Counted from the stretch's first letter, positions 3,882 to 53,216 are shown. The stretch is 64,000 nt of DNA from a virus (IMGVR_UViG_2932604667_000002:17261-81260), one strand, 5' to 3'. Notes: generated by a model not told the origin, from the letters alone. Program-made: numbers and translations.

Positions 3882-4475
3882 TCAGTCCTCGCCCGGGAAC
3901 TGAATCGTGATGACGGGCTCGAAGTTGTCGCCGGGGCCGATGACCATCTCAAGCGTGACCTGCTTGGCGGTGCGGGACCTGCCGTCGCGGGGGATGCGCG
4001 CCACGGTGAACCGGGACCGGTCGGTGTTCCCGGCGGTCAGGGCGGCTTTGCGGGCCATCCACAGGACGTCCCACAGACGGCCAGACTCGTCCTGGTAGGT
4101 GCGCTGGCAGGTGTCGTCGTCGTCGGTCCAGCGGACGGAGTCGCTCCAGACGGAGGCGGTCATGGCCATGGGGTGACGGAACCCGGCTTCGCGGGCGATG
4201 TTCTCGGGGACCTCCACCAGGGCGCCATCCTCGATCATCTGGGCGCGGGTGAAGACGTGGATGGGCTCGCCGTAGAGGGCGACAAGCTCGGCGGCGTGCT
4301 CCTCGGCGGTGAGGGTGTGCGTCTGGCCGCCGCCGATGTCGTTGCCGTCGGTGGTCCAGAACTCGCCGTCGTCCTCGGGGATGACGGTGCCGGGCGGCGC
4401 CCAGCGCATCATGTCTCCGGTGCCGGAGATGACGCCGTCGATCTGTTCGAGGATCTCGTTGGTGGACTTGGTCAC
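3882..4475 (-). CDS. hypothetical protein (197 aa)
   Basis: first gene after cassette 4492; GGAGG SD 6 nt after hairpin. Confidence 0.6.
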   Translation of the reverse strand: MTKSTNEILEQIDGVISGTGDMMRWAPPGTVIPEDDGEFWTTDGNDIGGGQTHTLTAEEHAAELVALYGEPIHVFTRAQMIEDGALVEVPENIAREAGFRHPMAMTASVWSDSVRWTDDDDTCQRTYQDESGRLWDVLWMARKAALTAGNTDRSRFTVARIPRDGRSRTAKQVTLEMVIGPGDNFEPVITIQFPGED

Positions 4476-4491
4476 GTGGGCCTCCTGTCTG

Positions 4492-4550
4492 GGTGTTGGG
4501 TCGCTCTCCCAACACCATTGAATGTACCGGTATTTAAGACCTGTGGCAAT
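4492..4550 (-). promoter_or_regulatory. promoter/leader-hairpin cassette (perfect 9-bp stem)
   Basis: GGTGTTGGG-TCGCTCT-CCCAACACC, GTACCGGTATTTAA, TGGCAA. Confidence 0.65.
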
Positions 4551-4617
4551 GTGGGTGAGCTGGCAGCCCAGCCGGAGAACAGCGCCCCCGTGTGGGTGGG
4601 GGCGCCGCCGGCAAGTG

Positions 4618-5763
4618 CTACTCGCCGCGTGCCTCGCGCTTCCGGCGGGCGATCAGCTCACGCGCCTGCCCGACCGTCAGCCCCTCCGCCAGCGCCTCCG
4701 CCCGGGAGATCCGGCCCTCCACCTTGTCGTACGGCACCGTGTCGGTGTGCATCTTCTCGTGGGCCAGCGCCTTGCACATTTCGACGGTCACGATCGGCCC
4801 GGCGTTGATCCAGTAGTGCGCCCACGGGATGGACACGCTCTTGGCGTTCGCCCGGACCACCTCGACTGCCTCCCCGAAGTAGATGACGAAGTCGCCCTTC
4901 TCGAAGTCGGCCTTGGACCACAGCTTGACGCCGCGCTGCTCGGCCTGGGCCAGGACCTCCCGCCAGTAGCCGAGTTCGTCGTCGATCTGGGCGAGGTCCG
5001 CCTCGCGGCTGGCCTTGTACCCCGGCGACGATGGCACCTTGCACCAGCGGTCGCCGTCGCCGTAGGTGTGGAGCACCCGCGCGCCCTCGGGCAACTCCTC
5101 ACCCGCGTGGACGGTGCGCTCCCAGCCGTCCTCCAGCACGCGGACGATGCGCCGCCGGTCGGCCTCCAGCTTCTCGATACGCCGGCGCGTGGTGCCCGGG
5201 TCCTCGCGGTGCCGCTGGTAGTTCTCGGCCGCCTGGGCACGGCCCGCCCAGTACTTGCCCTTCTTCGTCTCCTCGATGGCCTTGCCGTCCTGAGTGTGCG
5301 CCCAGTCGATCAGACGGCGGTGCCTGCGCTCGCTGTGGTGGCCGACGAGGATCGGCTGCCCCAGCGGAATGTGGCTCAGTCGCTCACGGGTGCGATCCCA
5401 GCGCGCGTTCCCGGCGGCGGTGTTGCGGTCGGCGCGCTCGCCGTACCGGTCGGCACGCTCCTCCGCCCGTTCGTTGCGGTCAGCCTCGGCCTCCGCGAAC
5501 GACCGGCCGAGGGTGACGTTGTCGATGTCGACCTCGACGGTGAATCCGGCGTCTCGGAGCGCCTGGGCGGCCCGGTCGATCGTCCACCGGTCAGCGGCCT
5601 TGTCGCGGGAGTTGCGGATGTAGAGGCCGACGTGGCGGGAGAATCGGAACCCGCGGGTGCGGACGATCTCCCACACTCCGTCCCCCTTCCGGCTGCCCTC
5701 GACGAGCGTGCCTTCCTCGCGGGTGTGGACGATCCGGATCGTCTGGCTGTTGGTGCTGGTCAC
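4618..5763 (-). CDS. hypothetical protein (381 aa), Arg/Glu-rich central region
   Basis: first gene after cassette 5780; long clean ORF. Confidence 0.6.
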   Translation of the reverse strand: MTSTNSQTIRIVHTREEGTLVEGSRKGDGVWEIVRTRGFRFSRHVGLYIRNSRDKAADRWTIDRAAQALRDAGFTVEVDIDNVTLGRSFAEAEADRNERAEERADRYGERADRNTAAGNARWDRTRERLSHIPLGQPILVGHHSERRHRRLIDWAHTQDGKAIEETKKGKYWAGRAQAAENYQRHREDPGTTRRRIEKLEADRRRIVRVLEDGWERTVHAGEELPEGARVLHTYGDGDRWCKVPSSPGYKASREADLAQIDDELGYWREVLAQAEQRGVKLWSKADFEKGDFVIYFGEAVEVVRANAKSVSIPWAHYWINAGPIVTVEMCKALAHEKMHTDTVPYDKVEGRISRAEALAEGLTVGQARELIARRKREARGE

Positions 5764-5779
5764 GTGGGTCTCCTGTCTG

Positions 5780-5840
5780 GGTGTTGGGTCGCTCTCCCAA
5801 CACCCCTCGAACGTTCCGGTATTTAAGAGCTATGGAAATG
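5780..5840 (-). promoter_or_regulatory. promoter/leader-hairpin cassette (perfect 9-bp stem)
   Basis: GGTGTTGGG-TCGCTCT-CCCAACACC, GTTCCGGTATTTAA. Confidence 0.65.
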
Positions 5841-5844
5841 GCGT

Positions 5845-6369
5845 CTAGCTGGCAGCCCAGCCGAAGAACAGCCAGCCCGTGTGCGTGGGGGCGCCGCCGG
5901 TCAGGGTGACGTACAGGGTGCCGGACAGGATCCGCTGCGGCTTCCTGACCCGGGCGTAGGGGGAGGAAGCGGGGGACAGCTCGTAGCTCCCGGCGGTGTA
6001 CTCCTTGACCTGCTCACCGTCCCGGAGCTGGCCGGCGACGGCGGCCTCGGCCGCCGCCTCGACGCTCTCGTAGCCGCCGGGGGTCTCCGGGATGGTGACG
6101 GTGACGGTGCGCTCGCTGGTGAGGACCGGGATCGCGCCGGCGCGGCCGCGGCGGGCGATCCGGGGGTCGTCCAGCAGGGTGTCAGCGAGCTGGTGGGCGT
6201 CGTCGAGGGGCATCGGGTCGCGCCGCATGACGATGTAGCCGTCGGTGGTGGAGATGGTGCCGTTGTAGGGGCTGGTGCCGTACTCGGCTTCGGCGTTGGC
6301 GACGGCTGCGCGGTAGGCGGTGGCGACGCGGGTTCCTTCGCCGATGGCGGAGAAGTTGTGTGCGCCCAT
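5845..6369 (-). CDS. hypothetical protein (174 aa)
   Basis: first gene after cassette 6388. Confidence 0.55.
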   Translation of the reverse strand: MGAHNFSAIGEGTRVATAYRAAVANAEAEYGTSPYNGTISTTDGYIVMRRDPMPLDDAHQLADTLLDDPRIARRGRAGAIPVLTSERTVTVTIPETPGGYESVEAAAEAAVAGQLRDGEQVKEYTAGSYELSPASSPYARVRKPQRILSGTLYVTLTGGAPTHTGWLFFGWAAS

Positions 6370-16472: not shown

Positions 16473-16528
16473 GTCGGGTCGCTCTCCCAACACCTTCGAT
16501 AGTACGGGTATTTAACTACCGTGGCAAT
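16473..16528 (-). promoter_or_regulatory. promoter/leader-hairpin cassette
   Basis: core GTACGGGTATTTAA; TGGCAAT. Confidence 0.65.
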
Positions 16529-16796
16529 CAGCGTCGCCGCCTTCCAGCTCGGCCACGCGACGCGCCAGACGATCAGCCCGGACGATGTTGACCTGGGCAG
16601 ACGTCATGAGACCCCAGCAGATGGCCACCAGGCCGAACACGACCGCCTCCAGCTCTGCGCCGACCGCCCCGACACTGAGCACCACCAGGCCAACCAGAGT
16701 CAGCACCTGGGCCGCGAACTCCACACGCGCCATCGCCGGCGTACGGCCGCTCCGCGCCAGGAACGCCTCCCACCTGGCCCGCAGGTCACTCTCCAT
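16512..16796 (-). CDS. membrane protein (94 aa, 2 TM)
   Basis: GGGGAGA SD; stop codon lies inside the -35 of cassette 16473. Confidence 0.5.
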   Translation of the reverse strand: MESDLRARWEAFLARSGRTPAMARVEFAAQVLTLVGLVVLSVGAVGAELEAVVFGLVAICWGLMTSAQVNIVRADRLARRVAELEGGDADCHGS

Positions 16797-20651: not shown

Positions 20652-20715
20652 TGGTCGGGTCGCTCTCCCAACACCTCTGATAGTACCGGTATTTAACCGT
20701 GTTGGCGCTAGCTGT
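20652..20715 (-). promoter_or_regulatory. promoter/leader-hairpin cassette
   Basis: core GTACCGGTATTTAA; TGGCGCTAGCTG. Confidence 0.65.
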
Positions 20716-21535
20716 GGAAGATCTCTGCCTGGACGTACTCCGGTCGCTGGGCGGCCCTCAGGACGCGCTCGTACCAGGCGAGGGCGAAGGTCATGCAGTT
20801 GGCTTCGTTCTTGTGGCTGGTCGAGCCGCACTGTGTGGGGGTGCGGCGGCCCTGGTAGCTCCAGGCCATGGAGTCGGCGGTGGTGAGCCACCGGCCGTAC
20901 CGCTCCAGGCCGTGAATCTTGACGCCGAAGCCGTGCAGGGGCAGGTCCCTGGCGGCGAGGGTGCGGAAGATCTCGCCGATCTCGGCGGAGTGCTGGCGGC
21001 GGCAGACGGAGCCGACACCGACGACGGGCCAGTCTTCGGCCAGGCGGACGCCGGCGGCCTCGTACAGGTCGACGCAGCGCAGGTAGTCGTCGATCGTCCA
21101 GCCCTGAATGACGGGCATGACGGGGCAGTCTCCGTATCCGTACTGCGGCCACAGCTCGACCAGGAGGACGAAGTTGTCGACGGTGCGCCGCTGGTGCTCG
21201 GCGACGGTGAGGCCGGTCCTGGCGAGCATGTCAGGCTCGCACATCCAGTCCTGCGGCGCTGCCCAGCCGATGTCGCCGATCTCGTCGTCGTAGCGCGCGA
21301 GCGCCTGGATGTACTGCTCGGGCGTTGTGGTGAACTCGCCGTACATGGACAGCTCGGTGAAGGCTCCGGAGTCGACCGCGTAGTGCCGGCCGGGCGGCGC
21401 CTTCGGGAGGGTCTTGCGGCCGGCGAGGATCCGGTGCGACACGAACAGGGACACCTCGATCGGAGCGATGGTCAGCCATCGCTCGCGGTGGGTTCCGAGG
21501 TAGAAGTTGAGCTCTGTCTCTTCGTCGCAGATCAC
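20708..21535 (-). CDS. dpdA: tRNA-guanine-transglycosylase-fold protein, DpdA-like (paralog 1)
   Basis: DSGAF (cf. TGT DSGGFQ), VMPVIQG (cf. GIVQGG); clearly homologous to 29387..30289. Confidence 0.5.
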   Translation of the reverse strand: MICDEETELNFYLGTHRERWLTIAPIEVSLFVSHRILAGRKTLPKAPPGRHYAVDSGAFTELSMYGEFTTTPEQYIQALARYDDEIGDIGWAAPQDWMCEPDMLARTGLTVAEHQRRTVDNFVLLVELWPQYGYGDCPVMPVIQGWTIDDYLRCVDLYEAAGVRLAEDWPVVGVGSVCRRQHSAEIGEIFRTLAARDLPLHGFGVKIHGLERYGRWLTTADSMAWSYQGRRTPTQCGSTSHKNEANCMTFALAWYERVLRAAQRPEYVQAEIFHS

Positions 21536-23771: not shown

Positions 23772-23790
23772 GGTGGTCCTCCTGGTGGGG

Positions 23791-24457: not shown

Positions 24458-24522
24458 GGTCTTCTCCTTCTCTCGGGGGAGTGCGTGGTGTGTTGGATGT
24501 GCTGGTCGGGAGGTCGGGTTGG

Positions 24523-24771
24523 TCAGGTGCGGCGCAGGGCGAGCGGCTGGCCGACGGGGTAGATGGCCCAGGCGTCCTTGATGGCGACCGCCCATTCGAC
24601 GGGGTCGGCCTCGTAGTCGCCACCGGGGAACCAGCGCGCCTCGAAGTTCTCCGAGCCGCCCATGTTGGCGGCGATGTCGTTGCGGGCGATGACGGTCATC
24701 TGGGTGCCGACGTGGATGACGAGGCGGGTCGTGTCCGGCGGCTCGGGCAGGAGGATGTCGGAGGGGTTCAC
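24523..24771 (-). CDS. hypothetical protein (82 aa, GTG)
   Basis: GTGA overlap. Confidence 0.45.
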   Translation of the reverse strand: MNPSDILLPEPPDTTRLVIHVGTQMTVIARNDIAANMGGSENFEARWFPGGDYEADPVEWAVAIKDAWAIYPVGQPLALRRT

Positions 24772-25196
24772 GCGATCAGTCCCCTGTTCTGGGCGTGCTC
24801 GCGGAGCGCGTCCAGGGCGTGGCCTCCGCTCAGCCACCACTCTCGGCAGGCAGTGACGCCCAGGCCGGTGTGCGCGGAGAGGCGGTTGATCAGAGTAAGG
24901 GTGTCGGTGTGGTGCGCGTTGGTGTGGGAGAACAGGCGGCCGATCTGCTCGGGCGTCCAGCCGCGCGGCGCTGCGGCGGGCGCGCTGAGCGCGTTGTGAG
25001 TCAGGGCGAGCACGGTCCGCAGGATGTGCAGCACCTCGTCGGGCGTGGTCGGCGTCTGCAGGAGGCGGCGCCACTCGTCGGCGAGCTCGGTGGCGGCCTC
25101 GTGCTCGGCGTCGCCGCTGGAGCTCTGGGCCGCGGTGTCGAAGGCGTTGACGGCGTCGGCGACGTCCTTCAGGTACTTCGGCGCGCTGGTGATCAT
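24768..25196 (-). CDS. hypothetical protein (142 aa)
   Basis: ATGA overlap. Confidence 0.5.
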   Translation of the reverse strand: MITSAPKYLKDVADAVNAFDTAAQSSSGDAEHEAATELADEWRRLLQTPTTPDEVLHILRTVLALTHNALSAPAAAPRGWTPEQIGRLFSHTNAHHTDTLTLINRLSAHTGLGVTACREWWLSGGHALDALREHAQNRGLIA

Positions 25197-25417
25197 TCGT
25201 CGTCGTCCTCGTTGTCCTCGTTGTCCTCGCAGTACTGCTCGTAGGCGGCTGCCTCGGCGCCGTCTGGGCTGTCGGCCTCCACGGTGGTGGCGTAGCGCTG
25301 GAAGTCGCCGCTGTCGGACTCGCTGTCGACGCAGTTGTGGTCGCCTTCGATCACGCCGGCGACAAGGAATTCGTCCGCGTCGGGGTCGACGAGGGCGAAC
25401 ACGGTGTAGATGGTCAT
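25193..25417 (-). CDS. acidic protein (74 aa)
   Basis: AAGGAG SD; C-terminal DNEDNEDDDE. Confidence 0.5.
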   Translation of the reverse strand: MTIYTVFALVDPDADEFLVAGVIEGDHNCVDSESDSGDFQRYATTVEADSPDGAEAAAYEQYCEDNEDNEDDDE

Positions 25418-25647
25418 CGGATGGGCTCCTTTGCGGTTGAGTCGGCGAACATGCGCTCGCCCCAGGGGCCGAGCTTTCGGCACTCGGGGGAGCACCACAG
25501 GCGGCCGGTGCTCGGCTCGTAGATCCAGCCGTCGGCGACGGCGAGGTCGCGGATGTCGTCGGCGCTCACGCCGTCCTCGGCGGGGTCGTAGGACTCCATG
25601 CAGCCGTCGCACTCGGCGATGGGGACCGTTCGGCGTTCGATGGCCAC
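25414..25647 (-). CDS. Cys-containing protein (77 aa, GTG)
   Basis: GGGAG SD. Confidence 0.45.
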   Translation of the reverse strand: MAIERRTVPIAECDGCMESYDPAEDGVSADDIRDLAVADGWIYEPSTGRLWCSPECRKLGPWGERMFADSTAKEPIR

Positions 25648-25650
25648 GCT

Positions 25651-26025
25651 CTACTCCCAGTCCTCGGGCCGGAAGATCGGGACGTCGAGGTTGTCCCAGT
25701 TGGTGACGTGGTGCTCGCAGGTGACCGGTCCCCAGGTGCGGGCGATGGTGGAGCGGACGCGGTCCTGGTCCCGCAGGTGGGTGAGGGTGGGGTCGAAGGT
25801 GGTCTCGGCGACGAGCTGGCCGCCCTCGTAGAACGGGGGCTCGCCGCGCCAGTTGGCTCCGGTCTCGCCGTTGTCGATGTAGCGGACGCCCTCGTAGTAA
25901 AGGATGCGGCCGCCTGGGTTCTTGCGGGGCCGCCAGACGGCGGTGCGGGTGGTGCCGTCGGGGTGCGGCTCGATGCGGTAGACGTACAGGTGGCCCTCGA
26001 TGGGCCGGGAGTCCAGGTCGTTCAT
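25651..26025 (-). CDS. hypothetical protein (124 aa)
   Basis: ATGA overlap. Confidence 0.5.
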   Translation of the reverse strand: MNDLDSRPIEGHLYVYRIEPHPDGTTRTAVWRPRKNPGGRILYYEGVRYIDNGETGANWRGEPPFYEGGQLVAETTFDPTLTHLRDQDRVRSTIARTWGPVTCEHHVTNWDNLDVPIFRPEDWE

Positions 26026-26255
26026 CGGGGCTCTCCTTCGGCGGTCAGGGTGCGCAGCAGGTCCCGGGGGTCGGTCATGACCTCGTCGGGGCCGGTGCGC
26101 GCGGTCGCCAGGTCGCCCGTGGGGGAGTAGCTGGCGTGGATGGTCTGGTCGTCGCGGGTGTAGGTGACGGTGTGGTCGTCGCCCGCATTGGGCCGAGCGA
26201 TGGCCCATCTGTTTCGGCGGGCCACCGCGTTCAGCGCGGTGATTTCGCTGCCCAT
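26022..26255 (-). CDS. hypothetical protein (77 aa)
   Basis: first gene after cassette 26273. Confidence 0.5.
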   Translation of the reverse strand: MGSEITALNAVARRNRWAIARPNAGDDHTVTYTRDDQTIHASYSPTGDLATARTGPDEVMTDPRDLLRTLTAEGEPR

Positions 26256-26272
26256 GCAGCCTCCAGTCCGGG

Positions 26273-26320
26273 TGTCGGGTCGCTCTCCCAACACGGCTGA
26301 TTGTACCGGTATCTAGACGG
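26273..26320 (-). promoter_or_regulatory. promoter/leader-hairpin cassette (no TGGCAA box)
   Basis: core GTACCGGTATCTAG. Confidence 0.55.
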
Positions 26321-26684
26321 ATGCGGGCGGCTCGTCCAGCATCTGGAGGCGGGTCCAGGTGAGCAGGAGTTCGAGGGCCACGTACACGCCCTCGTCGCCG
26401 TCCCTCTGCTGCATGGTGGCGAGGGCGGGGGCCATATGGTCCAGGTGCTGGGTGTAGCAGCGGCCGCCGGGCAGGATCGCGCAGTCGTGCTGGACGAGGT
26501 CGCCGGTGGGGTTCAGACGGTGGACGCTGATCAGGCGTTCGCTCACGGTCGCGCCGAAACCCGCGGCCTGGAACAGGGGGAACGTCGTGTGGGTGGCGGC
26601 GTTCTCTCCGTCGGTGACGGTGTACGTCTTCTCGCCGGTCGCATCGTTGGCGTCCAGCTTCCGGGTCGGGGTGTTGGTGTCCAT
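26313..26684 (-). CDS. hypothetical protein (123 aa)
   Basis: first gene after cassette 26703. Confidence 0.55.
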   Translation of the reverse strand: MDTNTPTRKLDANDATGEKTYTVTDGENAATHTTFPLFQAAGFGATVSERLISVHRLNPTGDLVQHDCAILPGGRCYTQHLDHMAPALATMQQRDGDEGVYVALELLLTWTRLQMLDEPPASV

Positions 26685-26702
26685 CGTGGACCTCCTTGTT
26701 GT

Positions 26703-26760
26703 GGTCGGGTCGCTCTCCCAACACCCCTGATGGTACCGGTATTTAGTCAGGCTGGCGCCC
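26703..26760 (-). promoter_or_regulatory. promoter/leader-hairpin cassette
   Basis: core GTACCGGTATTTAG; TGGCGCC. Confidence 0.65.
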
Positions 26761-27400
26761 CTGTGCTGTCGAGGAGTTGGAAGAACTCGGCGCGTACGGC
26801 GGGGTCCTCGCGGAAGACGCCGGCGAGGTGAGAGGTGACCATGGCCGCGCCGGTCGCCCGAGCTCCACGCAGCGTCATGCAGGAGTGGACGGAGCGGATC
26901 ACGCAGGCCGCTCCGAGGATGTCGAGGTTGTCGGCGATGGCGGCCACGATCTGGTCGCCGAGTTTCTCCTGCATCTGTGGCCGGGCGGCGTACTCCTGGG
27001 TGATGCGGGCGAACTTCGACAGGCCCAGGACCTTTGCGCCTGGGGATGGGATGTAGCTGATGGAGGCCGTGCCGGTGAAGGGCAGGAGGTGGTGCTCGCA
27101 GATGGACACGAACGGAATCCCTGGCACCAGGATCATGCCGGGGTCGGGGCTCGGTGGCGGGAACGTCCGGGCGAGGTGGCGTGCCGGGTCCAGGGTCATG
27201 CCGCTGGTCAGCTCGGCCAGGGCGCGCACGAACCGTCCTGGGGTGTCGGCGGTGGACTCCTCGTCACACGGGATGCCGAGCGCGTCGAACATGTGCCGGG
27301 CGTGCCACTCCGCGCGGTTGTGCGGCGTGTCTTCGGTGAGCGCGTCGACGTAGTCGACGGCTTCGAGGATGGAGTAGACGTGGGTCTCGGGTGCGCCCAT
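26747..27400 (-). CDS. folE: GTP cyclohydrolase I
   Basis: FVSICEHHLLPF, GLSKFARI, QMQEKL motifs. Confidence 0.75.
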   Translation of the reverse strand: MGAPETHVYSILEAVDYVDALTEDTPHNRAEWHARHMFDALGIPCDEESTADTPGRFVRALAELTSGMTLDPARHLARTFPPPSPDPGMILVPGIPFVSICEHHLLPFTGTASISYIPSPGAKVLGLSKFARITQEYAARPQMQEKLGDQIVAAIADNLDILGAACVIRSVHSCMTLRGARATGAAMVTSHLAGVFREDPAVRAEFFQLLDSTGAPA

Positions 27401-28137
27401 CAGTGTCCTCTCTCGTCGCCCCAGAGGTGGATGTGGAGCCTCGGGGTGAAGTTGAACCGGTAGTGCAGCGCCCGGTCGATGATGCGGCGGGACACGTCGG
27501 CGAGCACGGACGCGCTCCGCCCCTCCGGCATGATCCACACGAGGCGGGAGGGGATGTCGTGGTCGACGGTCAGGCTGGCGACCTCGTCCACGTCGTCGGC
27601 GGTACGGCAGACGACCTTGAAGACGGCCTTGCCGCTGGCGTTGAACTCCCGCAGGGCCAGCGGGTTGATCCGCTTGGCCTCGAAGAGGTGGGAGTGCCCC
27701 AGCTTCGGGGACACGTTGAAGGCGTCGACCATGAGCACGCTCCGGCGGGTCGGCCGGACGGTGCCGTTGGTTTCGACCTCGATGCGGCGGCCCATGGCGG
27801 CCAGCCCGTCGAGGAGGAGGTCCCAGCCGTGCTGCTTCTGGTGGAGCAGCGGCTCGCCGCCGGTGATGACGACCATGCCGGCGCGGTGGCTCTCGACGGT
27901 CGTGAGGATCTCGGCGACGGGGACCCGCTGCAGTTCCTGGCGTAGGTCGAACCGGTCGGCGTCCCAGGTGTAGGCGGCATCGCACCAGGCACAGGCCAGA
28001 TTACAGCCGCTGAGCCGTACGAAGGAGGCTACGACGCCGAGCGATGGACCCTCGCCCTGGACGGTCGGGCCGAAGACTTCGGAGACGACGAGGGTCGTGT
28101 CTGTGGCGTGGGTGTCGGCGGTCGGTGTGGTGGTCAT
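27400..28137 (-). CDS. queE: 7-carboxy-7-deazaguanine synthase (radical SAM)
   Basis: CNLACAWCD, ITGGEPLL. Confidence 0.75.
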   Translation of the reverse strand: MTTTPTADTHATDTTLVVSEVFGPTVQGEGPSLGVVASFVRLSGCNLACAWCDAAYTWDADRFDLRQELQRVPVAEILTTVESHRAGMVVITGGEPLLHQKQHGWDLLLDGLAAMGRRIEVETNGTVRPTRRSVLMVDAFNVSPKLGHSHLFEAKRINPLALREFNASGKAVFKVVCRTADDVDEVASLTVDHDIPSRLVWIMPEGRSASVLADVSRRIIDRALHYRFNFTPRLHIHLWGDERGH

Positions 28138-28658
28138 GCGGGTGGGGCGCCTTCCTGTAGGAGGTGACGCAGCTCGTCCTGGGCCTGCGGTGGCAGGCCG
28201 GTCGGCTCGTCTTGGGCGGCCCATTCGGCGGCGTTGACGTGCGTCTCGCTGATGCGGACACGGGAGATGTGCGCGCCGGCGGCCAGCCCTGGGATCCCGT
28301 GGATCCAGGTGGCGGCCTGGGTGGCGATCAGGTGGGCGACCGCTTCGACCGTGGGCCAGGCGGCGCCTGGCCAGTCCTCTCCGAACACGAACACCTTCGA
28401 ATGGGCGGATCGGAGTGCGGAGACGAGGGGGTCTCGGTGGCCGAGCATAGCCCCGTGATCAAGGTGGGCGTCGATCCATCCGCGCATCGCTGCTTTGAAG
28501 AGGCCGAACTCGGCGACGGTGTAGTCCTCGGACAGGCCGGGGGCCAAGATGGTTACCTCTGCCCACCAGGAGTGGCCGTGCAGGCTCTGGCACTTGCCGC
28601 CGAGGTGGGGCAGGCGGTGGGCGGTCTCGAAGTTGTGCCGGCAGGTGACGGACGTCAT
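28134..28658 (-). CDS. queD: 6-carboxy-5,6,7,8-tetrahydropterin synthase
   Basis: CQSLHGHSW (CxxxHGH). Confidence 0.7.
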   Translation of the reverse strand: MTSVTCRHNFETAHRLPHLGGKCQSLHGHSWWAEVTILAPGLSEDYTVAEFGLFKAAMRGWIDAHLDHGAMLGHRDPLVSALRSAHSKVFVFGEDWPGAAWPTVEAVAHLIATQAATWIHGIPGLAAGAHISRVRISETHVNAAEWAAQDEPTGLPPQAQDELRHLLQEGAPPA

Positions 28659-29368
28659 GGCACCGCCGGGGCCTGGTAGGTGGTGGCGGCGTCGGCGTAG
28701 CCGGTGGGGTCGCCGACGCACGCTTCGGCGAACGCCTGGCGTCGTTCCTGGCAGGTGCCGCAGGTGCCGCAGTGGAGGTCACCGCCCTTGTAGCAGGACC
28801 AGGACAGGTACAGCGGCGCGTCGAGGTTGTGGCCGAGGTGGACGATGGCGGTCTTCGTCCAGCCGATGAACGGTGTTTCGACGGTGAAGCCGGGCCGGGC
28901 GAATCCTTCGTTGCCCAGGGCGACGGTGTCGCGGAACGCTTCGATGAAGGCGGGCCGGCAGTCCGGGTAGATGAAGTGGTCGCCGGCGTGGACGGCGGTG
29001 GCGATGCGGTCGCAGCCGCGGGCTACGGCGACGGCGGCCGCGGCGGAGAGCAGGACCATGTTGCGGTTCGGGACGACGGTGACCTTCATGGACGCTTCGG
29101 CGTAGTGGCCGTCGGGGACGGACACCGCGGTGTCGGTCAGCGCGGAGCCGGACAGGAGTTGGCCGAAGGCGCGCAGGTCGAGGGTGTCGTGGCGGATGCC
29201 GTAGTGGTCGGCGACGGCTCGCGCGGAGTCGAGCTCCCGGATGTGACGCTGGCCGTAGTCGACGGACAGGGCGTGCAGGTCGTCGCCGTTCTCGTAGTAG
29301 TGGGCCGCCAGGACGGTGGAGTCCAGTCCGCCGGACAGCAGGATGAGCGTCGTGGTCATGGCGGGCAT
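28655..29368 (-). CDS. queC: 7-cyano-7-deazaguanine synthase
   Basis: LLSGGLDST PP-loop, C-terminal 4-Cys site; alt. ATG 29359; no SD, CGCGACCTTAACC motif 15 nt upstream. Confidence 0.75.
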   Translation of the reverse strand: MPAMTTTLILLSGGLDSTVLAAHYYENGDDLHALSVDYGQRHIRELDSARAVADHYGIRHDTLDLRAFGQLLSGSALTDTAVSVPDGHYAEASMKVTVVPNRNMVLLSAAAAVAVARGCDRIATAVHAGDHFIYPDCRPAFIEAFRDTVALGNEGFARPGFTVETPFIGWTKTAIVHLGHNLDAPLYLSWSCYKGGDLHCGTCGTCQERRQAFAEACVGDPTGYADAATTYQAPAVP

Positions 29369-33428: not shown

Positions 33429-33451
33429 GGCGGTGCCTCCGGTTCGGGGGT

Positions 33452-33507
33452 GTCGGGTCGCTCTCCCAACACCCTCAAAGGTACCGGTATTTAACTGGCC
33501 TGGCAAT
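33452..33507 (-). promoter_or_regulatory. promoter/leader-hairpin cassette
   Basis: core GTACCGGTATTTAA; TGGCAAT. Confidence 0.65.
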
Positions 33508-33838
33508 CGGCGCGGGCCTGCTGGCGGGCGGCTCGGGCTGCTCGCGCGCCGACGTAGCGGCCGTTCTTGTAGGCATTCATGTTCCCCAGCGGCGGCCCGG
33601 CCTTGCGCAGGCCGGCGGACAGGAACCAGGCCAGGGCGGTGTTGAGATCCCACAGCCGCGGCCTGCCCTTGCCGGGCGCGTGCACGCCGGGGATCGGCTC
33701 GGGGAAGCCTGTGGTGGCGCGGCGGTCGTACCAGGTGCGGACGTGCTTGGGCGTGATGGTGCGCGCGCCGAGTTCGGTCATGGCGCTGAAGGTCGTGAAG
33801 ACCTCAGCGAGGTCCTTGGCGGTCACCCGTCCGGACAT
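33491..33838 (-). CDS. HTH_17/excisionase-family DNA-binding protein (115 aa)
   Basis: AKDLAEVFTTFSAMTELGARTITPKHVRTWYDRRATTGFPEP; stop is the TAA inside TTAAATA of cassette 33452. Confidence 0.5.
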   Translation of the reverse strand: MSGRVTAKDLAEVFTTFSAMTELGARTITPKHVRTWYDRRATTGFPEPIPGVHAPGKGRPRLWDLNTALAWFLSAGLRKAGPPLGNMNAYKNGRYVGARAARAARQQARADCQAS

Positions 33839-33851
33839 CCCCGCCGGCAGA

Positions 33852-34331
33852 TCAGCGTGGGCGGGTGGGGCCGTAGGCGTGCCAGGTTCGATGGTTGATC
33901 CGGTTCCGGCGGGTGTGCTCAATGGTCTTCGTCGTTCCGCTCGAATCGTTCCAGCAGAACGCGAGAACCAGATGGACGCCGGCGACGACCTCGGGGTTGC
34001 GCCGGTGCCCAGCGGACGGGCACCAGGTGGTGCCGTCGTCTCGCGTCCGCCGATGGTCGGGTTTACAGGTAGGGGCACAGGTGTCCCAGTCCGCCGGCAC
34101 CGGATCCTCGAGCACGGTGACGTCCGGACGGGACGGATTGGCTTTCTGGTGCCTGACCCATTGGTGGGCGATGTGGTCGGCGCCGCGTTTCGCGGCGCCG
34201 TGCCTGACCAGCAGGGTAGCGCCGGGCCGGGTCTTGGTCAGTTGCTCGTCCAGCGCGTCGGTGACGATGTAAGCGAGTTCTTGGGGCCAGTCTTGGGATC
34301 CGGTGACGGCGACCAGGCGGGCGTTCATCAT
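33852..34331 (-). CDS. SLOG/DUF2493-like protein (159 aa)
   Basis: VAVTGSQDW motif. Confidence 0.4.
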   Translation of the reverse strand: MMNARLVAVTGSQDWPQELAYIVTDALDEQLTKTRPGATLLVRHGAAKRGADHIAHQWVRHQKANPSRPDVTVLEDPVPADWDTCAPTCKPDHRRTRDDGTTWCPSAGHRRNPEVVAGVHLVLAFCWNDSSGTTKTIEHTRRNRINHRTWHAYGPTRPR

Positions 34332-34338
34332 GGCGAGG

Positions 34339-34575
34339 TTACGACTCGGGAGGGGTCTGCTTCTCGTCGAGCTCGGCGACCTCCTTGCGGGTGCGCTGCA
34401 GCTCGTCGTCGACCCAGAGAAGCTGGGCGATGACCGCCAGGACGGAGCCGGTGATCAGGCCGACGGCGGCGAGGTCCTTCGGGTCGCCGACGATCCCCAT
34501 GCGCAGCAGGCCGACGGTGACGCCGGCGGTGGCGGTGGCGACCGAGGTGTAGGTCATTTTCCTTGAGCGGGACAT
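34339..34575 (-). CDS. small membrane protein (78 aa)
   Basis: AAGGAAG SD. Confidence 0.5.
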   Translation of the reverse strand: MSRSRKMTYTSVATATAGVTVGLLRMGIVGDPKDLAAVGLITGSVLAVIAQLLWVDDELQRTRKEVAELDEKQTPPES

Positions 34576-34643
34576 GCGGGGCACTTCCTTCGATAAGAGA
34601 GAGGCCCCGGCCGGGTGGCCGAGGCTGTTGGGGGATGGCGGGG

Positions 34644-34754
34644 TCAGGAGTAGAACCGGCGCAGCAGGTTCCTCACCAGACGCAGCCTGTGGGCTCGGGT
34701 CTGGCAGTTGCGGGTCTGACACCAGCACATCGCCGAGTCGTTGGGCATTCCCAT
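34644..34754 (-). CDS. small basic Cys-containing peptide (36 aa)
   Basis: strong AAGGAGA SD; MGMPNDSAMCWCQTRNCQTRAHRLRLVRNLLRRFYS; below ORF-track size cutoff. Confidence 0.35.
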   Translation of the reverse strand: MGMPNDSAMCWCQTRNCQTRAHRLRLVRNLLRRFYS

Positions 34755-34810
34755 GAGGGTCTCCTTTGGTGGGGGTCGTGCGGGGGTTAGGGGAAGGGTT
34801 CGGTGGGCTT

Positions 34811-35185
34811 CTACGGGAGGCTGTCCACGCGGTCGGGGCAGTGGCGCGCGACGACGTACACGGCGAGGTGGCCTGCCTCGCCGCCGGAGAGGCCCTCATC
34901 CGCGACGACTTTGATCATGCGTAGCCAGCCGTCCCGCATGGCCAGGACTTCGCAGGCGGCCTTGCCGATCGTGTCCAGGTCCGCATCCGGCCGGTTCGCC
35001 AACGAGGGCACGTGCTCTCGGACGAGTCGGTAGTAGTCCTCAGCCGAGAGCGGGCCAGCCACGGCGAGCTGGTCACGCAGGTGGGCGTTCTGCGGGGGCG
35101 GATCAGGTGAGCATGCGGCCAGGGCGAGCGCGGCGGCCGCGAAGGCGAGGACGCGACGCACTGCGCGGATGGTGGCCTGGTTCAT
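34811..35185 (-). CDS. lipoprotein (124 aa)
   Basis: signal peptide with LAAC lipobox; AGGAGA SD; hairpin-only element 35209 upstream. Confidence 0.6.
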   Translation of the reverse strand: MNQATIRAVRRVLAFAAAALALAACSPDPPPQNAHLRDQLAVAGPLSAEDYYRLVREHVPSLANRPDADLDTIGKAACEVLAMRDGWLRMIKVVADEGLSGGEAGHLAVYVVARHCPDRVDSLP

Positions 35186-35208
35186 GGTGTCTCCTGTTCG
35201 GCGAGGGT

Positions 35209-35229
35209 GTCGGGTCGCTCTCCCAACAC
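35209..35229 (-). promoter_or_regulatory. leader hairpin only (promoter core replaced by terminator hairpin)
   Basis: GGGTCGCTCTCCCAACAC immediately followed by GTCCCGCC...GGCGGGAC stem. Confidence 0.5.
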
Positions 35230-35235
35230 GTGCGG

Positions 35236-35272
35236 GGGAGGTGTCCCGCCCTCCGTGCGGCGGGCGGGACCG
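35236..35272 (-). terminator. GC-rich hairpin abutting leader hairpin 35209
   Basis: GTCCCGCC...GGCGGGAC. Confidence 0.4.
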
Positions 35273-35277
35273 GTGGT

Positions 35278-35472
35278 TCAGCTCTGGATGATGCGCTGCA
35301 TCTCGTCGAGGATCCGGCGGGCGTTGGCGAGGCCGTCGTCGACCAGGGCGAGCAGGCCCTCGGCCTGGTGGAGCCGCTGCCGTTCGGTGTCGAGCGCCTG
35401 GCGCTCGATCGTCAGCAGCTCGCTCTCCAGGTCGACGACCGCTGTCGTCGCCGGGTCGTTGGGCAGGTCCAT
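35278..35472 (-). CDS. small coiled-coil protein (64 aa)
   Basis: GAAGGAGA SD. Confidence 0.5.
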   Translation of the reverse strand: MDLPNDPATTAVVDLESELLTIERQALDTERQRLHQAEGLLALVDDGLANARRILDEMQRIIQS

Positions 35473-35503
35473 GGGTCTCCTTCGGAGGGGGATCGTGCGG
35501 GGG

Positions 35504-36076
35504 TTAGGCGTTGCGGAACAGGTCGGTGATCCGGGCGGCCTTGGTGGTGTAGGTGATGTGGGCCAGGTGGTCGGGGGACTCGGCCTTGCGCTGAGCCAGG
35601 GCGGTCAGGGCCGCCTCGACGCAGGAGCGGACGTAGGTGGCGACCTGGTTGCCGTGCTCGGCCATCCGGGCGGCGTAGTCGGCCATCTCCTTGGCCTTGC
35701 GCTCCGGCGTGTAGACGCTGGCGAACCGGCGGTAGGTCGAGCAGGTGCCGTCGGCCATCTCCGCGTAGAACTTCCAGTTGCGGCGGGCCTGACGTTCGGC
35801 GCTGGCGGCGGTGTCGGCCTCGCTGGTGCCGCGGATGATGGCGTGGATCTTGGCGGACTCTTCGATGGCGGATGCGGTGGTGTAGCGCACCTCGGCCCGG
35901 GTCGGGGTGACCTTGACGACGACGCCGCGGCGGTACTGGCCTCGGGAGTAGATCCAGACGATGTCGCCCTCGGCGGCGGTGGTCATCGGTTCCATGCCCC
36001 GCTCGCCGGGGCCGACGCCCTTGGGCAGGGCAGCGACGACGGCGCGGGCGGTGGCTTCGATGGTGGCCTGGTCCAT
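35504..36076 (-). CDS. hypothetical protein (190 aa)
   Basis: first gene after cassette 36101; N-terminus MDQAT(I/V)EA shared with 36246 gene. Confidence 0.55.
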   Translation of the reverse strand: MDQATIEATARAVVAALPKGVGPGERGMEPMTTAAEGDIVWIYSRGQYRRGVVVKVTPTRAEVRYTTASAIEESAKIHAIIRGTSEADTAASAERQARRNWKFYAEMADGTCSTYRRFASVYTPERKAKEMADYAARMAEHGNQVATYVRSCVEAALTALAQRKAESPDHLAHITYTTKAARITDLFRNA

Positions 36077-36160
36077 GGCGTCTCCTGTTCGACTGGGGTG
36101 TCGGGTCGCTCTCCCAACACCTCTGAATGTACCGGTATTTAAGTCGACTGGCAACCTTCT
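36040..36160 (-). repeat. near-identical ~115-bp repeat (copy 1) spanning cassette and first 5 codons
   Basis: GGTGGCCTGGTCCATGGCGTCTCCTGTTCGACTG...GGTCGCTCTCCCAACACC; second copy 36495-36610. Confidence 0.5.
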
Positions 36161-36166
36161 CGGGCC
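36101..36166 (-). promoter_or_regulatory. promoter/leader-hairpin cassette
   Basis: core GTACCGGTATTTAA; TGGCAAC. Confidence 0.65.
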
Positions 36167-36198
36167 TGCCGGCGAGTTCCTTGGAGGTCTCGATTCAA

Positions 36199-36230
36199 GG
36201 GAAGCCCCGGCGTCCGGGCCGGGGCTTCCT
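36199..36230 (-). terminator. GC-rich hairpin
   Basis: GAAGCCCCGGC-GTCCG-GGCCGGGGCTTC. Confidence 0.5.
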
Positions 36231-36245
36231 GGGCAGGGTCCGGGG

Positions 36246-36527
36246 TCAGAACCCCCGGGAGTAGTGGTCTGGCCCCATGCACAGGGCTTCCCGGAGGCCG
36301 TGATCGCACGTCGGGTCCAGGGTCTCCCAGAGCCGCGCGTACTGGTCGTCGATCGGGAACTCCGGGAGTGTGTGGAAGGCGTGGGTTGCGCTCTTGCGCT
36401 CGATGAACGCTATGGCCTGGTCCTCCGTGGCGAACGTGGCCAGGTAGCTCCGGCGCTGGTCGCAGATGTGGATCTCAAGGGTGATCGCCCCCTCCTGCCC
36501 GGGGGCTTCGACGGTGGCCTGGTCCAT
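36246..36527 (-). CDS. hypothetical protein (93 aa)
   Basis: first gene after cassette 36552. Confidence 0.5.
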   Translation of the reverse strand: MDQATVEAPGQEGAITLEIHICDQRRSYLATFATEDQAIAFIERKSATHAFHTLPEFPIDDQYARLWETLDPTCDHGLREALCMGPDHYSRGF

Positions 36528-36610
36528 GGCGTCTCCTGTTCGACTGCGGTGGTCGGGTCGCTCTCCCAACACCCATGAACGTACCGGTATTTAACTCTCC
36601 TGGCAATCGG
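36495..36610 (-). repeat. near-identical ~115-bp repeat (copy 2)
   Basis: see 36040-36160. Confidence 0.5.
36552..36607 (-). promoter_or_regulatory. promoter/leader-hairpin cassette
   Basis: core GTACCGGTATTTAA; TGGCAAT. Confidence 0.65.
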
Positions 36611-36611
36611 C

Positions 36612-36855
36612 TCGGGCCAGACGGCGGGCCTTCATCCGGGCCAGGCGCTGCTCGTCGGTCGGGGCGGTCCACAGGTGGTAGCCCTCGCCGAGGGCCTCAT
36701 GCCGTGCGGTCGACCAGCAACTGAAGTGGCCGCGTTCCTCCAGCCCGCACCATGCGCACCCGTTGGGGTCTGGGATCCGGGGCTCTATCGGCCACCTCCT
36801 GAAGGCGGAGGGGCCGGGCTCGGCGCCCAGCCCCTCGAAGCGGGATCGGCGGCGT
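36612..36855 (-). pseudogene. 3' remnant of a paralog of the 33491..33838 HTH gene (no start codon)
   Basis: open frame ...GYHLWTAPTDEQRLARMKARRLARADCQES* ends on the cassette TAA exactly like 33491 gene (...ARAARQQARADCQAS*) but has no ATG/GTG/TTG upstream. Confidence 0.4.
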
Positions 36856-37692
36856 TCAGGCCGCCATCGCCTCGCGGACCAGGGCGAGCCTGGTCAGCAG
36901 GTCGTCACGCTCGCGCCGGAGCTCGCTCACCTGCGCCCGGAGCTCCTCGACTTCTCTGGTGTCGGCCTGGCTCGTTTTGAGGTCCCTGTACTCCCTGAAG
37001 ATTCGCGTGATCGCGGGGAGCAGGTCGGCTGGCTCCAGGGATTCGGGGGCCGGCGACGGGCGGTGCGTGATGCGGAAGCGCTCAGGCACTGAGTCGGGGT
37101 GTTCGGTGTTGAGGTGCGCAACCCATTCGGCGTGAGCGGGAAGCCAGATGAGGCAGGTATGACACATGAAGCCGCTGTAGTCGTGCCGGGTGGCCAGGTG
37201 TCGCTGGTAGCCGTCTGCGGTTGAGCGTACGGCTGGGCAGTGCGGGCAGGGGTATTCGCCCTGCGGGTGGGGCGTGTCCTTCAGCCGGGCGGCGTGCATG
37301 GATACGGCCTGTTTCCGCGGGTCGGCGAACCGGCACTGGCCACACTGGTGGATCTTCATGGTGGGTTCCTCGGCCTCCTGTTCGCCGGTGCTGGTGCTAT
37401 CGGACGCTGCATCTTCGGGTTCGGGGTCCGCCGGCGCGTCGGGCACTGGTTCGGTCGCGGGGTCCGGCTGCTCGGCGGCCTGGTCCTCAGTGAGGGCATC
37501 GGGGATGTCGACGCCGATCCGCTGCAGGTCCTTGACGGCCTCGTCGAGCGCCGGGCCTGCGAGGTCGCGACGGAAGATCAGCCATTCGCCAGTTCGCGGG
37601 TTCGTCACTTTGATCCGGCTCTTGCGGGCCTTCCACGTGCATCCCTGATGTGTGACGGCGCGTTTGAGCGTCGAGAGGTTTCGCGCGGTCAT
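36856..37692 (-). CDS. C2H2 zinc-finger protein (278 aa)
   Basis: two canonical Cx2Cx12Hx4H fingers (CPHC...HLATRH; CHTC...HLNTEH) plus one degenerate; AAGGAGG SD. Confidence 0.55.
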   Translation of the reverse strand: MTARNLSTLKRAVTHQGCTWKARKSRIKVTNPRTGEWLIFRRDLAGPALDEAVKDLQRIGVDIPDALTEDQAAEQPDPATEPVPDAPADPEPEDAASDSTSTGEQEAEEPTMKIHQCGQCRFADPRKQAVSMHAARLKDTPHPQGEYPCPHCPAVRSTADGYQRHLATRHDYSGFMCHTCLIWLPAHAEWVAHLNTEHPDSVPERFRITHRPSPAPESLEPADLLPAITRIFREYRDLKTSQADTREVEELRAQVSELRRERDDLLTRLALVREAMAA

Positions 37693-39591: not shown

Positions 39592-39624
39592 GGGGGACCC
39601 CAGGACGCCGGTCCTGGGGACCCA
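39592..39624 (-). terminator. hairpin (paralog of 40020)
   Basis: GGGGACCCCAGGAC-GCC-GGTCCTGGGGACCC. Confidence 0.5.
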
Positions 39625-39629
39625 TCTGG

Positions 39630-39911
39630 TCAGACGTTGACGTCCTTCGACTCGCGCGCGGCGCGGTACGCCGTCACCCGCTGGAAGGTGGCGCGCTGAG
39701 CCGCTGCCTCGGCCCGCAGGCAGATGACGATCAGGGCGGGGGTCAGCATTGCGATCGCAGTCAGGACGCCGACGGCGACGGTGGCCACAGCGGAGTCGCC
39801 GAACCCGAACAGGCCCGGGATCAGTCGGGCGGCAGCCCAGGTGATGCCGGTGGCGGTGACGGTGTAGATGGCGGCGACGGTCCGGGGCCGGTTGAGCTTC
39901 CGGAGTGTCAT
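39630..39911 (-). CDS. small 2-TM membrane protein (93 aa), tandem paralog A
   Basis: first gene after cassette 39934; AGGAGG SD. Confidence 0.55.
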   Translation of the reverse strand: MTLRKLNRPRTVAAIYTVTATGITWAAARLIPGLFGFGDSAVATVAVGVLTAIAMLTPALIVICLRAEAAAQRATFQRVTAYRAARESKDVNV

Positions 39912-39933
39912 GCAAGCCTCCTGGTGAAGTGGG

Positions 39934-39992
39934 GTGTCGGGTCGCTCTCCCAACATCGGCTGACGGTACCGGTATTTAACCGACGGGGCAAC
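39934..39992 (-). promoter_or_regulatory. promoter/leader-hairpin cassette
   Basis: loop-proximal CCCAACATC; core GTACCGGTATTTAA; GGGCAAC. Confidence 0.6.
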
Positions 39993-40019
39993 CAGTTCGA
40001 GCCGGTTGGTCCACATACA

Positions 40020-40055
40020 GAGGAGACCCCAGGACGCCGGTCCTGGGGTCTCCTC
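40020..40055 (-). terminator. hairpin with 16-bp stem
   Basis: GAGGAGACCCCAGGAC-GCC-GGTCCTGGGGTCTCCTC. Confidence 0.5.
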
Positions 40056-40059
40056 TTGG

Positions 40060-40347
40060 TCAGGCGGCGACCTTCGACTCCTGCGCGGCGCGGTACGCCT
40101 TCGCGGCCTGGAAGGTGGCGCGCTTGGCCGCGGCCTCGGCCCGCAGGAGGATGACGATCAGGGCGGGAACCAGCACGGTGACCGCGGCCAGGACGCCGAC
40201 GGCGGCGCCGACCGCCGGGGAGTCGCCGAACCCGTACAGGGCCGGGATGAATCGGCCGGCGGCCCAGACGATGCCGATGGCGACGATGGCGGCGGCGGTG
40301 TGGGCGACGACGACGGTCCGCATCTGGCTGGGCTTCCGAGTGGTCAT
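40060..40347 (-). CDS. small 2-TM membrane protein (95 aa), tandem paralog B
   Basis: first gene after cassette 40368. Confidence 0.55.
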   Translation of the reverse strand: MTTRKPSQMRTVVVAHTAAAIVAIGIVWAAGRFIPALYGFGDSPAVGAAVGVLAAVTVLVPALIVILLRAEAAAKRATFQAAKAYRAAQESKVAA

Positions 40348-40367
40348 GCGAGCCTCCTGGTGAAGTG

Positions 40368-40428
40368 GGTGTTGGGTCGCTCTCCCAACACCTCTGACTG
40401 TACCGGTATTTAACTCGCCTGGCAACGC
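40368..40428 (-). promoter_or_regulatory. promoter/leader-hairpin cassette (perfect 9-bp stem)
   Basis: GGTGTTGGG-TCGCTCT-CCCAACACC; core GTACCGGTATTTAA; TGGCAAC. Confidence 0.65.
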
Positions 40429-53143: not shown

Positions 53144-53167
53144 CGTCGTCTCCAAAAAAGAGGTAGG

Positions 53168-53216
53168 CCCCAGGTCGCTCTCCCGGGGCCTACCGGTCTG
53201 TGGGGTCTTAGGTCGC
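53168..53216 (-). promoter_or_regulatory. leader hairpin variant (stem CCCCAGG/CCCGGGG) plus TAGGTCGCG box
   Basis: CCCCAGG-TCGCTCT-CCCGGGG then CTACCGGTCT and TTAGGTCGCG; upstream of HNH gene. Confidence 0.45.

Follow-up and report, generated by a model that had tools for sequence, protein, structure and literature searches.

A repeated cassette of a predicted promoter and a stem-loop, its local duplications and a small Cys/His gene with an ATA start position in a Microtetraspora fusca replicon

We analysed a stretch of viral DNA of 64,000 nucleotides (IMGVR_UViG_2932604667_000002:17261-81260; hereafter the window, with positions counted from its first letter) that belongs to a replicon of Microtetraspora fusca. 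A unit of about 60 bases, the cassette, recurs in it in about 25 copies, all in gene direction, across a 39-kb array of mostly orphan genes. We consider it probable that the cassette is a composite of a promoter and a hairpin that ends upstream genes and serves as portable homology, and that a small open frame running into one of the copies is a complete gene.

Results

The cassette combines a predicted promoter with a leader hairpin

The core GGGTCGCTCTCCCAACAC, searched with up to three mismatches, was found in 22 copies, all in a single orientation, against 0.14 expected; the promoter part TACCGGTATTTAA was found in 24 copies against 0.02 expected and the hairpin centre GGGAGAGCGA in 25 copies. 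Read on the gene strand, the cassette starts with TTGCCA (12 copies) or GCGCCA, followed by a 17-nt spacer containing TTAAATACCGG, by TACnnT and, after about 7 nt, by the hairpin GGTGTTGGG-AGAGCGA-CCCGACACC. A variable stretch of 2-20 nt then leads to GGAG and the start codon. Eleven columns are invariant. The arrangement of a -35 box (TTGCCA or GCGCCA), 17 nt and a -10 box (TACnnT) is present in 23 copies, and each copy has the orientation of the ribosome-binding site and start codon that follow it at 25-45 nt. A scan of the 33-41 kb region for consensus promoters returned four sites against 0.4 expected, three of which are cassettes (TTGCCA-17-TACAxT).

Two separable modules can be recognized, a sigma-70-like promoter, as predicted from its boxes and their spacing, and a hairpin with a 9-bp stem and an invariant 7-nt loop (AGAGCGA), which would act in the leader. 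The hairpin occurs without the promoter part at 35224 and 53184, and the promoter part without the hairpin at 62096 (+), 32535 (-) and 1377 (-). In the half cassette c35227, the similarity is lost at the hairpin's 5' edge. Pairing of the stem was observed in 83.6% of the cells, as compared with 34-60% when the 3' partner was slid, and compensatory changes are seen in three copies: the one at 23805 has CC/GG in place of TT/GA, the one at 2487 has an inserted G with a matching inserted C, and the one at 53184 retains the loop within a 13-bp stem that is wholly different. The predicted folds range from -22 to -29 kcal/mol, and the lowest z-score is -4.2 (another being -3.1). Hairpin and GGAG are separated by anything from about 2 to 20 nt, and there is no conservation in the ribosome-binding region itself. 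The cassette stem-loop, always downstream of the -10 box, probably lies in the transcribed leader and is probably not a terminator, as it usually lacks a U-tract; cassette copies downstream of a -10 box have none, the only one being found at the copy at 53184. Rfam gave no match anywhere in the window.

Promoter-only versions read CTAAATACCSGTACTnT and lie upstream of other genes, and a partial promoter-type copy is found at 40724 (+), on the parA-facing side of a divergent region. In the type-B cassettes (those with GCGCCA) at 8945-8995, 7181-7230 and 54876-54925 (-), a G+C-rich palindrome, for example CTGGCCCTGGCGC-ACCCA-GCGCCAGGGCCAG, has GCGCCA as its 3' arm, so that a terminator-like hairpin overlaps the next promoter.

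Some upstream genes end inside the cassette

The gene set comprised the PGAP calls mapped onto the window and three open reading frames (ORFs) read in the course of the analysis. Its 81 minus-strand genes stop on TGA (62), TAA (11) or TAG (8). Nine of them have their stop codon inside a cassette, which corresponds to about 9 of 24 cassettes: four use the TA[A/G] of the spacer (the ORF starting at 36788 and the genes starting at 33838, 26684 and 16796), three stop on CAGCTAG (21535, 6718 and 6369) and two on TGA (27400 and 2802). The original prediction held that many upstream genes terminate on a cassette TAA or TAG. The phenomenon is real and its three examples (the 94-aa, DpdA and 115-aa genes of Table 1) are correct, 'many' meaning roughly a third of the cassettes.

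Genes stop there because the promoter forms an AT-rich island within DNA of 69% GC and offers stop codons. The protein tail is dictated by the -35 box and the spacer, GAT TGC CA[G/C] nnn AGT TAA giving DC[Q/H]xS-stop and AGC TAG giving S-stop. Annotators should thus expect C-terminal tails dictated by a promoter, as well as chimeric gene ends.

Neighbouring cassettes share flanks of coding origin

The original prediction had proposed to align the cassette flanks with each other. In 253 pairs of cassettes, the 23 nt on the 5' side of the -35 hexamer were compared. Over a background of 7.0 ± 2.65 matching positions, outliers reached 19 (36593/33493), 18 (5825/4536), 16 and 16 (36141 with each member of the first pair) and 14 (39978/39538) of 23, and the members of all outlier pairs are only 1-2 cassettes apart.

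The pair with 19 matches corresponds to the small Cys/His gene described below and to the gene at 33491. Their common ending, pointed out in the original prediction, extends over 12 codons (ARRLARADCQES-stop in the small gene, ARQQARADCQAS-stop in the gene at 33491), in which 30 of 36 nt match. The gene at 33491 has a chimeric tail, its last 12 codons (33494-33529) being a copy of the tail of the small gene; a tblastn search with the 115-aa protein gave only non-significant matches. The same 33 nt are found upstream of cassette c36118 as a non-coding relic (36142-36174, RRQAREGCQST-stop), the composition of which is non-coding in this frame. The 3' end of the small gene is likely to be the source of the shared tail rather than its recipient, because this tail begins within the native C-terminal ARRxAR motif of the family; the relic upstream of c36118 points in the same direction.

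Longer repeats, of 127, 144 and 396 nt, were found by self-BLAST (Table 1). The two copies of the 127-nt repeat are 88% identical through flank, cassette, ribosome-binding site and the first eight codons (MDQAT[I/V]EA) of two orphan genes. The original prediction of near-identity followed by complete divergence (36040-36160 and 36495-36610, with five shared codons) was therefore confirmed with a slightly longer repeat, BLASTP finding no further similarity between the two products. More generally, genes with a common junction are otherwise unrelated by BLASTP, and the similarity ends abruptly. The copies of the 144-nt repeat are 87% identical and the right one holds a 19-codon relic (about 4540-4611) of the C-terminus of the upstream gene.

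Table 1. Coordinates of the cassettes, repeats and genes discussed in the text
Feature	Position	Strand	Description
Cassette c36570	36548..36606	-	-35 TTGCCA 36606-36601; TAA 36593-36591; -10 TACGTT 36583-36578
Hairpin of c36570	36573-36548	-	GGTGTTGGG/AGAGCGA/CCCGACCACC, then ribosome-binding site and ATG (36527)
Cassette c33470	33449..33506	-	-35 33506-33501; TAA 33493-33491; -10 33483-33478; hairpin 33473-33449
Cassette c36118		-	-35 36154-36149; hairpin 36121-36097
Half cassette c35227	35185..35230	-	Hairpin, leader, ribosome-binding site and ATG (MNQATI...), without promoter part
Separate hairpin	53154..53194	-	Same loop AGAGCGA, different 13-bp stem, then TCTTTTTT; terminator-like context, away from any promoter
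Small Cys/His gene	36591..36788	-	65 codons, CxxC...H...H, phrog_20506-like; ATA at start position; stop is the cassette TAA of TTAAATA
Ribosome-binding site AGGAGG	36795..36800	-	6 nt upstream of the ATA
94-aa membrane-like gene	16512..16796	-	Ends in ADCHGS on the cassette TAA of TTAAATA
DpdA gene	20708..21535	-	Stops on the TAG of CAGCTAGC / CAGCTAGCGCCA, type-B -35 region
115-aa orphan gene	33491..33838	-	Stops on the cassette TAA of TTAAATA
127-nt repeat, left copy	36500..36626	-	Last 11 codons of the small gene, cassette, ribosome-binding site, MDQATVEA of the 93-aa gene
127-nt repeat, right copy	36049..36174	-	Relic of the small-gene 3' end, c36118, MDQATIEA of the 190-aa gene
93-aa orphan gene	36246..36527	-	Bracketed by the 127-nt repeats; G+C-rich hairpin after it at 36200-36229
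190-aa orphan gene	35504..36076	-	In common with the 93-aa gene: first 8 codons only
144-nt repeat, left copy	5757..5900	-	With the right copy brackets DUF3560 gene 5763..4618 almost exactly
144-nt repeat, right copy	4469..4611	-	Non-coding relic of the 3' end of gene 6369..5845, cassette c4513, GTG start
Tandem duplication of cassette and gene	39596..40414	-	396 nt, 80% identity; paralogues 61% identical in amino acids
Exonuclease	58229-59572	-	
RecT	60554-62011	-	

A second type of junction repeat has no promoter (34730-34791 and 35448-35508, (-); 63 nt, 86% identity). It reads TAACCCCCGCACGA..AAGGAGACCC..ATGG, followed by shared first codons M[D/G][L/M]PND[P/S]A, and its copy at 34754 heads an unannotated ORF of 36 codons (34644..34754). 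Further paralogue pairs in the array, 7721-7933 and 8583-8909 (-; 45% identity over 84 aa) and 15167-15589 and 16094-16453 (-; 27% over 104 aa), indicate older local duplications.

The frame ending in cassette c36570 reads as a complete small gene

The frame that stops on the TAA of cassette c36570 is open from 36893 to 36594. The original prediction, which had placed it at the slightly different coordinates 36612-36855, was right in that it has no canonical start, as no ATG, GTG or TTG is found before 36635. An ATA at 36788 is preceded by an AGGAGG, and the GC content by codon position is coding-like for the 65 codons that start from it (0.68/0.58/0.82) and not coding-like for the 35 codons upstream of it (0.66/0.83/0.86). 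A HMMER scan yielded 400 representatives at E<=1e-3. Many of these are proteins of 55-80 aa that align end to end, query residues about 4-60 pairing with their own residues about 3-55. The family motif PxPNGCxxCG...R.H...GWH.W.xPT..QR..R..AR is present in the ORF 36788..36594, in which the invariant residues C11, H21, P43, R51 and R55 and the near-invariant C14, G36 and H38 are all retained, and phrog_20506 matches it at E=1.8e-14. In the homologue carried by the Streptomyces plasmid NZ_CP130725 (MTARIPSPNAC...), the ATG aligns with the ATA of the window. The ATA was confirmed by a second assembly (run SRR35523724), which is identical at this position. On the strength of these alignments, the frame is a full-length gene of 65 codons that belongs to a widespread small Cys/His family and in which ATA occupies the start position.

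The ORF was missed by several searches: PGAP calls no gene there, a word-based protein search with the open frame gave no match, and Pfam and NCBIfam returned nothing for it or for most of the neighbouring proteins. No second copy was found in the approximately 100 kb of the replicon that were searched. Annotation may similarly miss other small genes with near-cognate starts. The family alignment, together with the placement of the ribosome-binding site, led us to reject a frameshift fusion of the ORF with the upstream C2H2 gene and favoured the ATA over an upstream CTG or a downstream ATC.

The original prediction interpreted the frame as a startless pseudogene, the 3' fragment of a gene that had travelled with a duplicated cassette. 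The lack of a canonical start, the absence of a PGAP call and the 12 last codons in common with the gene at 33491 are in keeping with this interpretation. Yet the 65 codons align over their whole length with a family of 55-80-aa proteins and keep its invariant residues, the AGGAGG is 6 nt upstream of an ATA that coincides with the ATG of the Streptomyces homologue, and the sharing with the gene at 33491 is limited to the last 12 codons or so, the remainder of both proteins being unrelated. A fragment is thus hardly conceivable to us. A valid upstream start or a frameshift-corrected full gene had been named as observations that would speak against it; what we found is a full gene that requires no frameshift correction, that lacks a canonical start and that has ATA in the second assembly too. 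Such a complete gene would be either weakly translated from the near-cognate ATA or recently silenced by an ATG-to-ATA change. We give slightly less than even chances to the first of these options, in which the gene is fully functional and the ATA a deliberately weak start, a matter that concerns the status of the gene only. The family-invariant residues are all intact, the ribosome-binding site is optimally spaced and in E. coli AUA supports initiation at about 1-2% of the AUG level (bioRxiv 10.1101/063800); on the other hand, an open frame of 65 codons easily survives by chance in DNA of 69% GC and ATA is very rarely annotated as a start.

The Cys/His module of the small gene, about 45 aa long, is also repeated 5-11 times in tandem in proteins of 466-940 aa. 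A protein of 7691 aa also matches it (E=1.4e-20), without a separate stretch being reported.

Recombination between nearby cassettes as the probable origin of the shared flanks

The probable mechanism behind these repeats is that the approximately 60 nt of shared cassette sequence act as portable homology. Recombination between nearby copies has probably duplicated cassettes together with variable lengths of flanking coding DNA, possibly by unequal crossing-over, by integration or excision of cassette-bearing circles, or by gene conversion, and may have been driven by the replicon's own RecT/exonuclease pair or by the host RecA. It would have left behind the chimeric gene ends, the relics without coding function and the single genes that lie between direct repeats. 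RecT-type recombinases are known to act on short, diverged homology (PMC3945230). The original prediction that cassettes are portable modules that shuffle gene cargo is supported in that cassettes have been copied with adjacent pieces of genes, as witnessed by the relics, the chimeric tail and the bracketing repeats; it needs to be restricted in that the sharing is local, between neighbours, rather than a free shuffling.

Several observations weigh against the overall reading of the cassette and of the small gene or restrict it. The copies of the repeats are just 80-88% identical, so that the duplication events are not recent, and the first flank-carrying repeat still requires an illegitimate joining event. 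The -35 box of the type-B cassettes (GCGCCA) agrees with the consensus at just 3 of 6 positions. The conserved spacer TTAAATACCGG, with its palindrome TACCGGTA, and the invariant loop exceed what a plain promoter and a plain hairpin would comprise. The second assembly that contains the ATA probably derives from the same isolate. Finally, no cassette-bearing relative was found in phage, plasmid, genome, viral or metagenome collections: megablast of the 33-40 kb region against phages and of the 30-42 kb region against plasmids gave no match, and the exact cassette pattern is absent from the GTDB genome contigs and the IMG/VR viral contigs. One metagenome match of the pattern, located inside a coding sequence, and a 24-nt match, the only one obtained by blastn of the cassette against plasmids, were discarded as chance. 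Two Logan short-read contigs of SRR35523724 start and finish inside cassettes. Structural variants between cassettes would be invisible in such assemblies because the repeats break the assembly graph.

We considered the possibility that the shared flanks are maintained by function, as an extended promoter or operator or as an optimised leader with optimised first codons, rather than produced by recombination. The cassette itself is clearly under selection, as indicated by its 11 invariant columns, and M[D/N]QAT is common to three downstream genes; first codons can influence translation. However, the extended flanks have no motif in common, as they vary by group (...GGCCCGAGCCGA versus ...GGCTGGGCTGCCAGCT), they are in two places the non-coding relics of another gene's reading frame, and they are shared only by neighbours 1-2 cassettes apart, with similarity that stops abruptly. 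Selection is therefore an improbable explanation for them. Another idea is that the hairpin is the dedicated site of a site-specific recombinase and that the array is an integron-like array of gene cassettes. It would agree with a unidirectional series of small orphan genes that have a conserved hairpin-forming repeat between them and with the half cassette that breaks exactly at the edge of the hairpin. We hold it for very unlikely, however, since the ends of the duplicated segments vary and fall outside the hairpin, the 9-bp stem with its 7-nt loop does not have a paired core/inverse-core architecture, each unit has its own promoter, and no integrase domain was found among about 55 proteins scanned, which represent part of the genes of the window and of the replicon.

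The window is part of a phage-like, probably circular replicon

The 278-aa protein encoded by 36856..37692 has an identical counterpart in Microtetraspora fusca (GCA_042896545.1, contig JBIAXI010000024.1, 151,757 bp). Three loci were used to map the window onto this contig, the record coordinate being the window coordinate minus 17364 above 17364 and plus 134298 below it. These two offsets reconcile only for a circular contig with a 95-nt overlap of its ends, from which we infer a circle of about 151,662 bp. The contig ends fall inside the window, at 17364/17365. The GC content is 66-72% throughout the window and 69% for the replicon.

The window encodes ParA, an FtsK/SpoIIIE-like protein (35-39% identical to Streptomyces and Streptosporangium plasmid proteins), RecT, an exonuclease, a DnaC-like loader and a GntR-like regulator. 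The exonuclease and RecT form a candidate single-strand-annealing recombination system. Just past the end of the window are an SPP1-type Dit protein and an NLPC_P60 protein of 1554 aa, the latter read by us as tape-measure-like. Owing to these two neighbours the replicon is a large siphophage-like genome or a phage-plasmid and not a plain plasmid, and the view of a conjugative plasmid (ParA, TraB-like) was dropped for the same reason.

DpdA, FolE, a Mom-like protein and a C5 methylase were found in the window, with QueC, QueD and QueE called beside them. The DNA-modification cluster at 18544-29359 (-), made of genes for the Mom-like protein, a PAPS-reductase-like protein, DpdA, the C5 cytosine methylase, FolE, QueE, QueD and QueC, suggests 7-deazaguanine modification of the replicon DNA, and possibly other modifications too. 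Most proteins flanking the cassettes have no Pfam family and several have no homologue except themselves; thus, in word-based searches, the 329-aa and 115-aa neighbours match only themselves. A 222-aa protein with a helix-turn-helix of the transposase/terminase-small-subunit type (HTH_Tnp_1, HTH_23) is encoded at 16786-17454 (-), directly upstream of the membrane-like gene that stops on cassette 16491.

Discussion

The conserved spacer with its palindrome and the invariant loop suggest that one or more additional factors bind to the cassette. The loop is constant while the stem co-varies, and the hairpin also occurs without the promoter, once in a terminator-like context, which makes it a candidate site for an RNA-binding factor. 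Such a factor might act as an antiterminator, as a nuclease in processing or stabilisation, or in the regulation of translation. As a tentative proposal, to which we attach a rather low probability, the GGG-AGAGCGA-CCC hairpin would be the site of a phage-encoded RNA-binding factor that coordinates about 25 early units and TACCGGTA a separate operator; together they would constitute a new cis-regulatory system that doubles as a recombination scaffold for acquiring orphan genes. In any case, the hairpin with its invariant loop, which has no match in Rfam, is a candidate for a new cis-regulatory RNA motif.

The closest parallel is provided by the PeSLs (promoter-early stem-loops), the mobile regulatory cassettes of T4-type phages (Arbiol et al. 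2010, PMC2839356; Comeau et al. 2014, PMC4122927). PeSLs and the M. fusca cassette are built alike: the stop codon of the upstream gene, within an AT-rich part, is combined with a sigma-70-like promoter and a stem-loop, after which come the ribosome-binding site and the start codon. The two kinds of unit are concentrated where small orphan genes abound, and in both cases the unit provides, or would provide, portable homology, single orphan genes being flanked by two cassettes. The mini-circle and excision/insertion model put forward for PeSLs fits the genes that are bracketed here by the 127-nt and 144-nt repeats. Yet the two elements are unrelated in sequence, and PeSLs belong to T4-type myoviruses, whereas the present cassettes are carried by an actinobacterial siphophage-like circle of 69% GC with an SPP1-type Dit and ParA and FtsK-like genes. 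The M. fusca stem-loop further differs by its constant position downstream of the -10 box, its invariant 7-nt loop and the usual lack of a U-tract, and there are about 25 copies as compared with about 50 for PeSLs. Inter-genome polymorphism and circles have been shown for PeSLs, as opposed to direct repeats within one genome here. The M. fusca cassette is an analogue, and not a homologue, of the PeSL.

Repeats of other actinophages are looser parallels. Cluster O mycobacteriophages carry over 30 copies of a short inverted repeat, a 17-bp dyad that is mostly intergenic or near gene starts, and Corndog gene 14 is flanked by direct copies and missing from relatives (Cresawn et al. 2015, PMC4351075). 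This repeat, however, is a bare 17-bp palindrome (TGTTCGGNNNCCGAACA) that lacks an attached promoter and any bias in orientation and has a variable loop between invariant arms, the opposite of what we observed in the M. fusca cassette. The SAS/ESAS of Cluster K (Pope et al. 2011, PMC3203893) and the stoperators of Cluster A (PMC9283540) are likewise present as many co-oriented copies at actinophage gene junctions, and the ESAS comprises an inverted repeat upstream of the start. The SAS, a conserved motif of 13 bp, overlaps the ribosome-binding site at a fixed position, whereas the distance between hairpin and ribosome-binding site varies in our case; stoperators are 13-bp asymmetric repressor sites mostly not tied to a promoter, and neither of the two is similar in sequence to the cassette. 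Stoperators are often located at stop codons. In integron attC arrays, too, a hairpin-forming repeat stands between small genes that all point the same way. Integron cassettes have no promoter and are recombined by IntI at one fixed position of attC; in the present array, each unit contains a promoter, the end-points of the duplications vary and the hairpin is much smaller.

Most documented cases of promoter/stem-loop cassettes that drive small orphan genes and, as portable homology, help to shuffle them come from T4-type phages with Gram-negative hosts. The presence of a sequence-unrelated counterpart in a high-GC actinobacterial replicon suggests that such cassettes represent a convergent, general route by which large phages acquire and express accessory genes.

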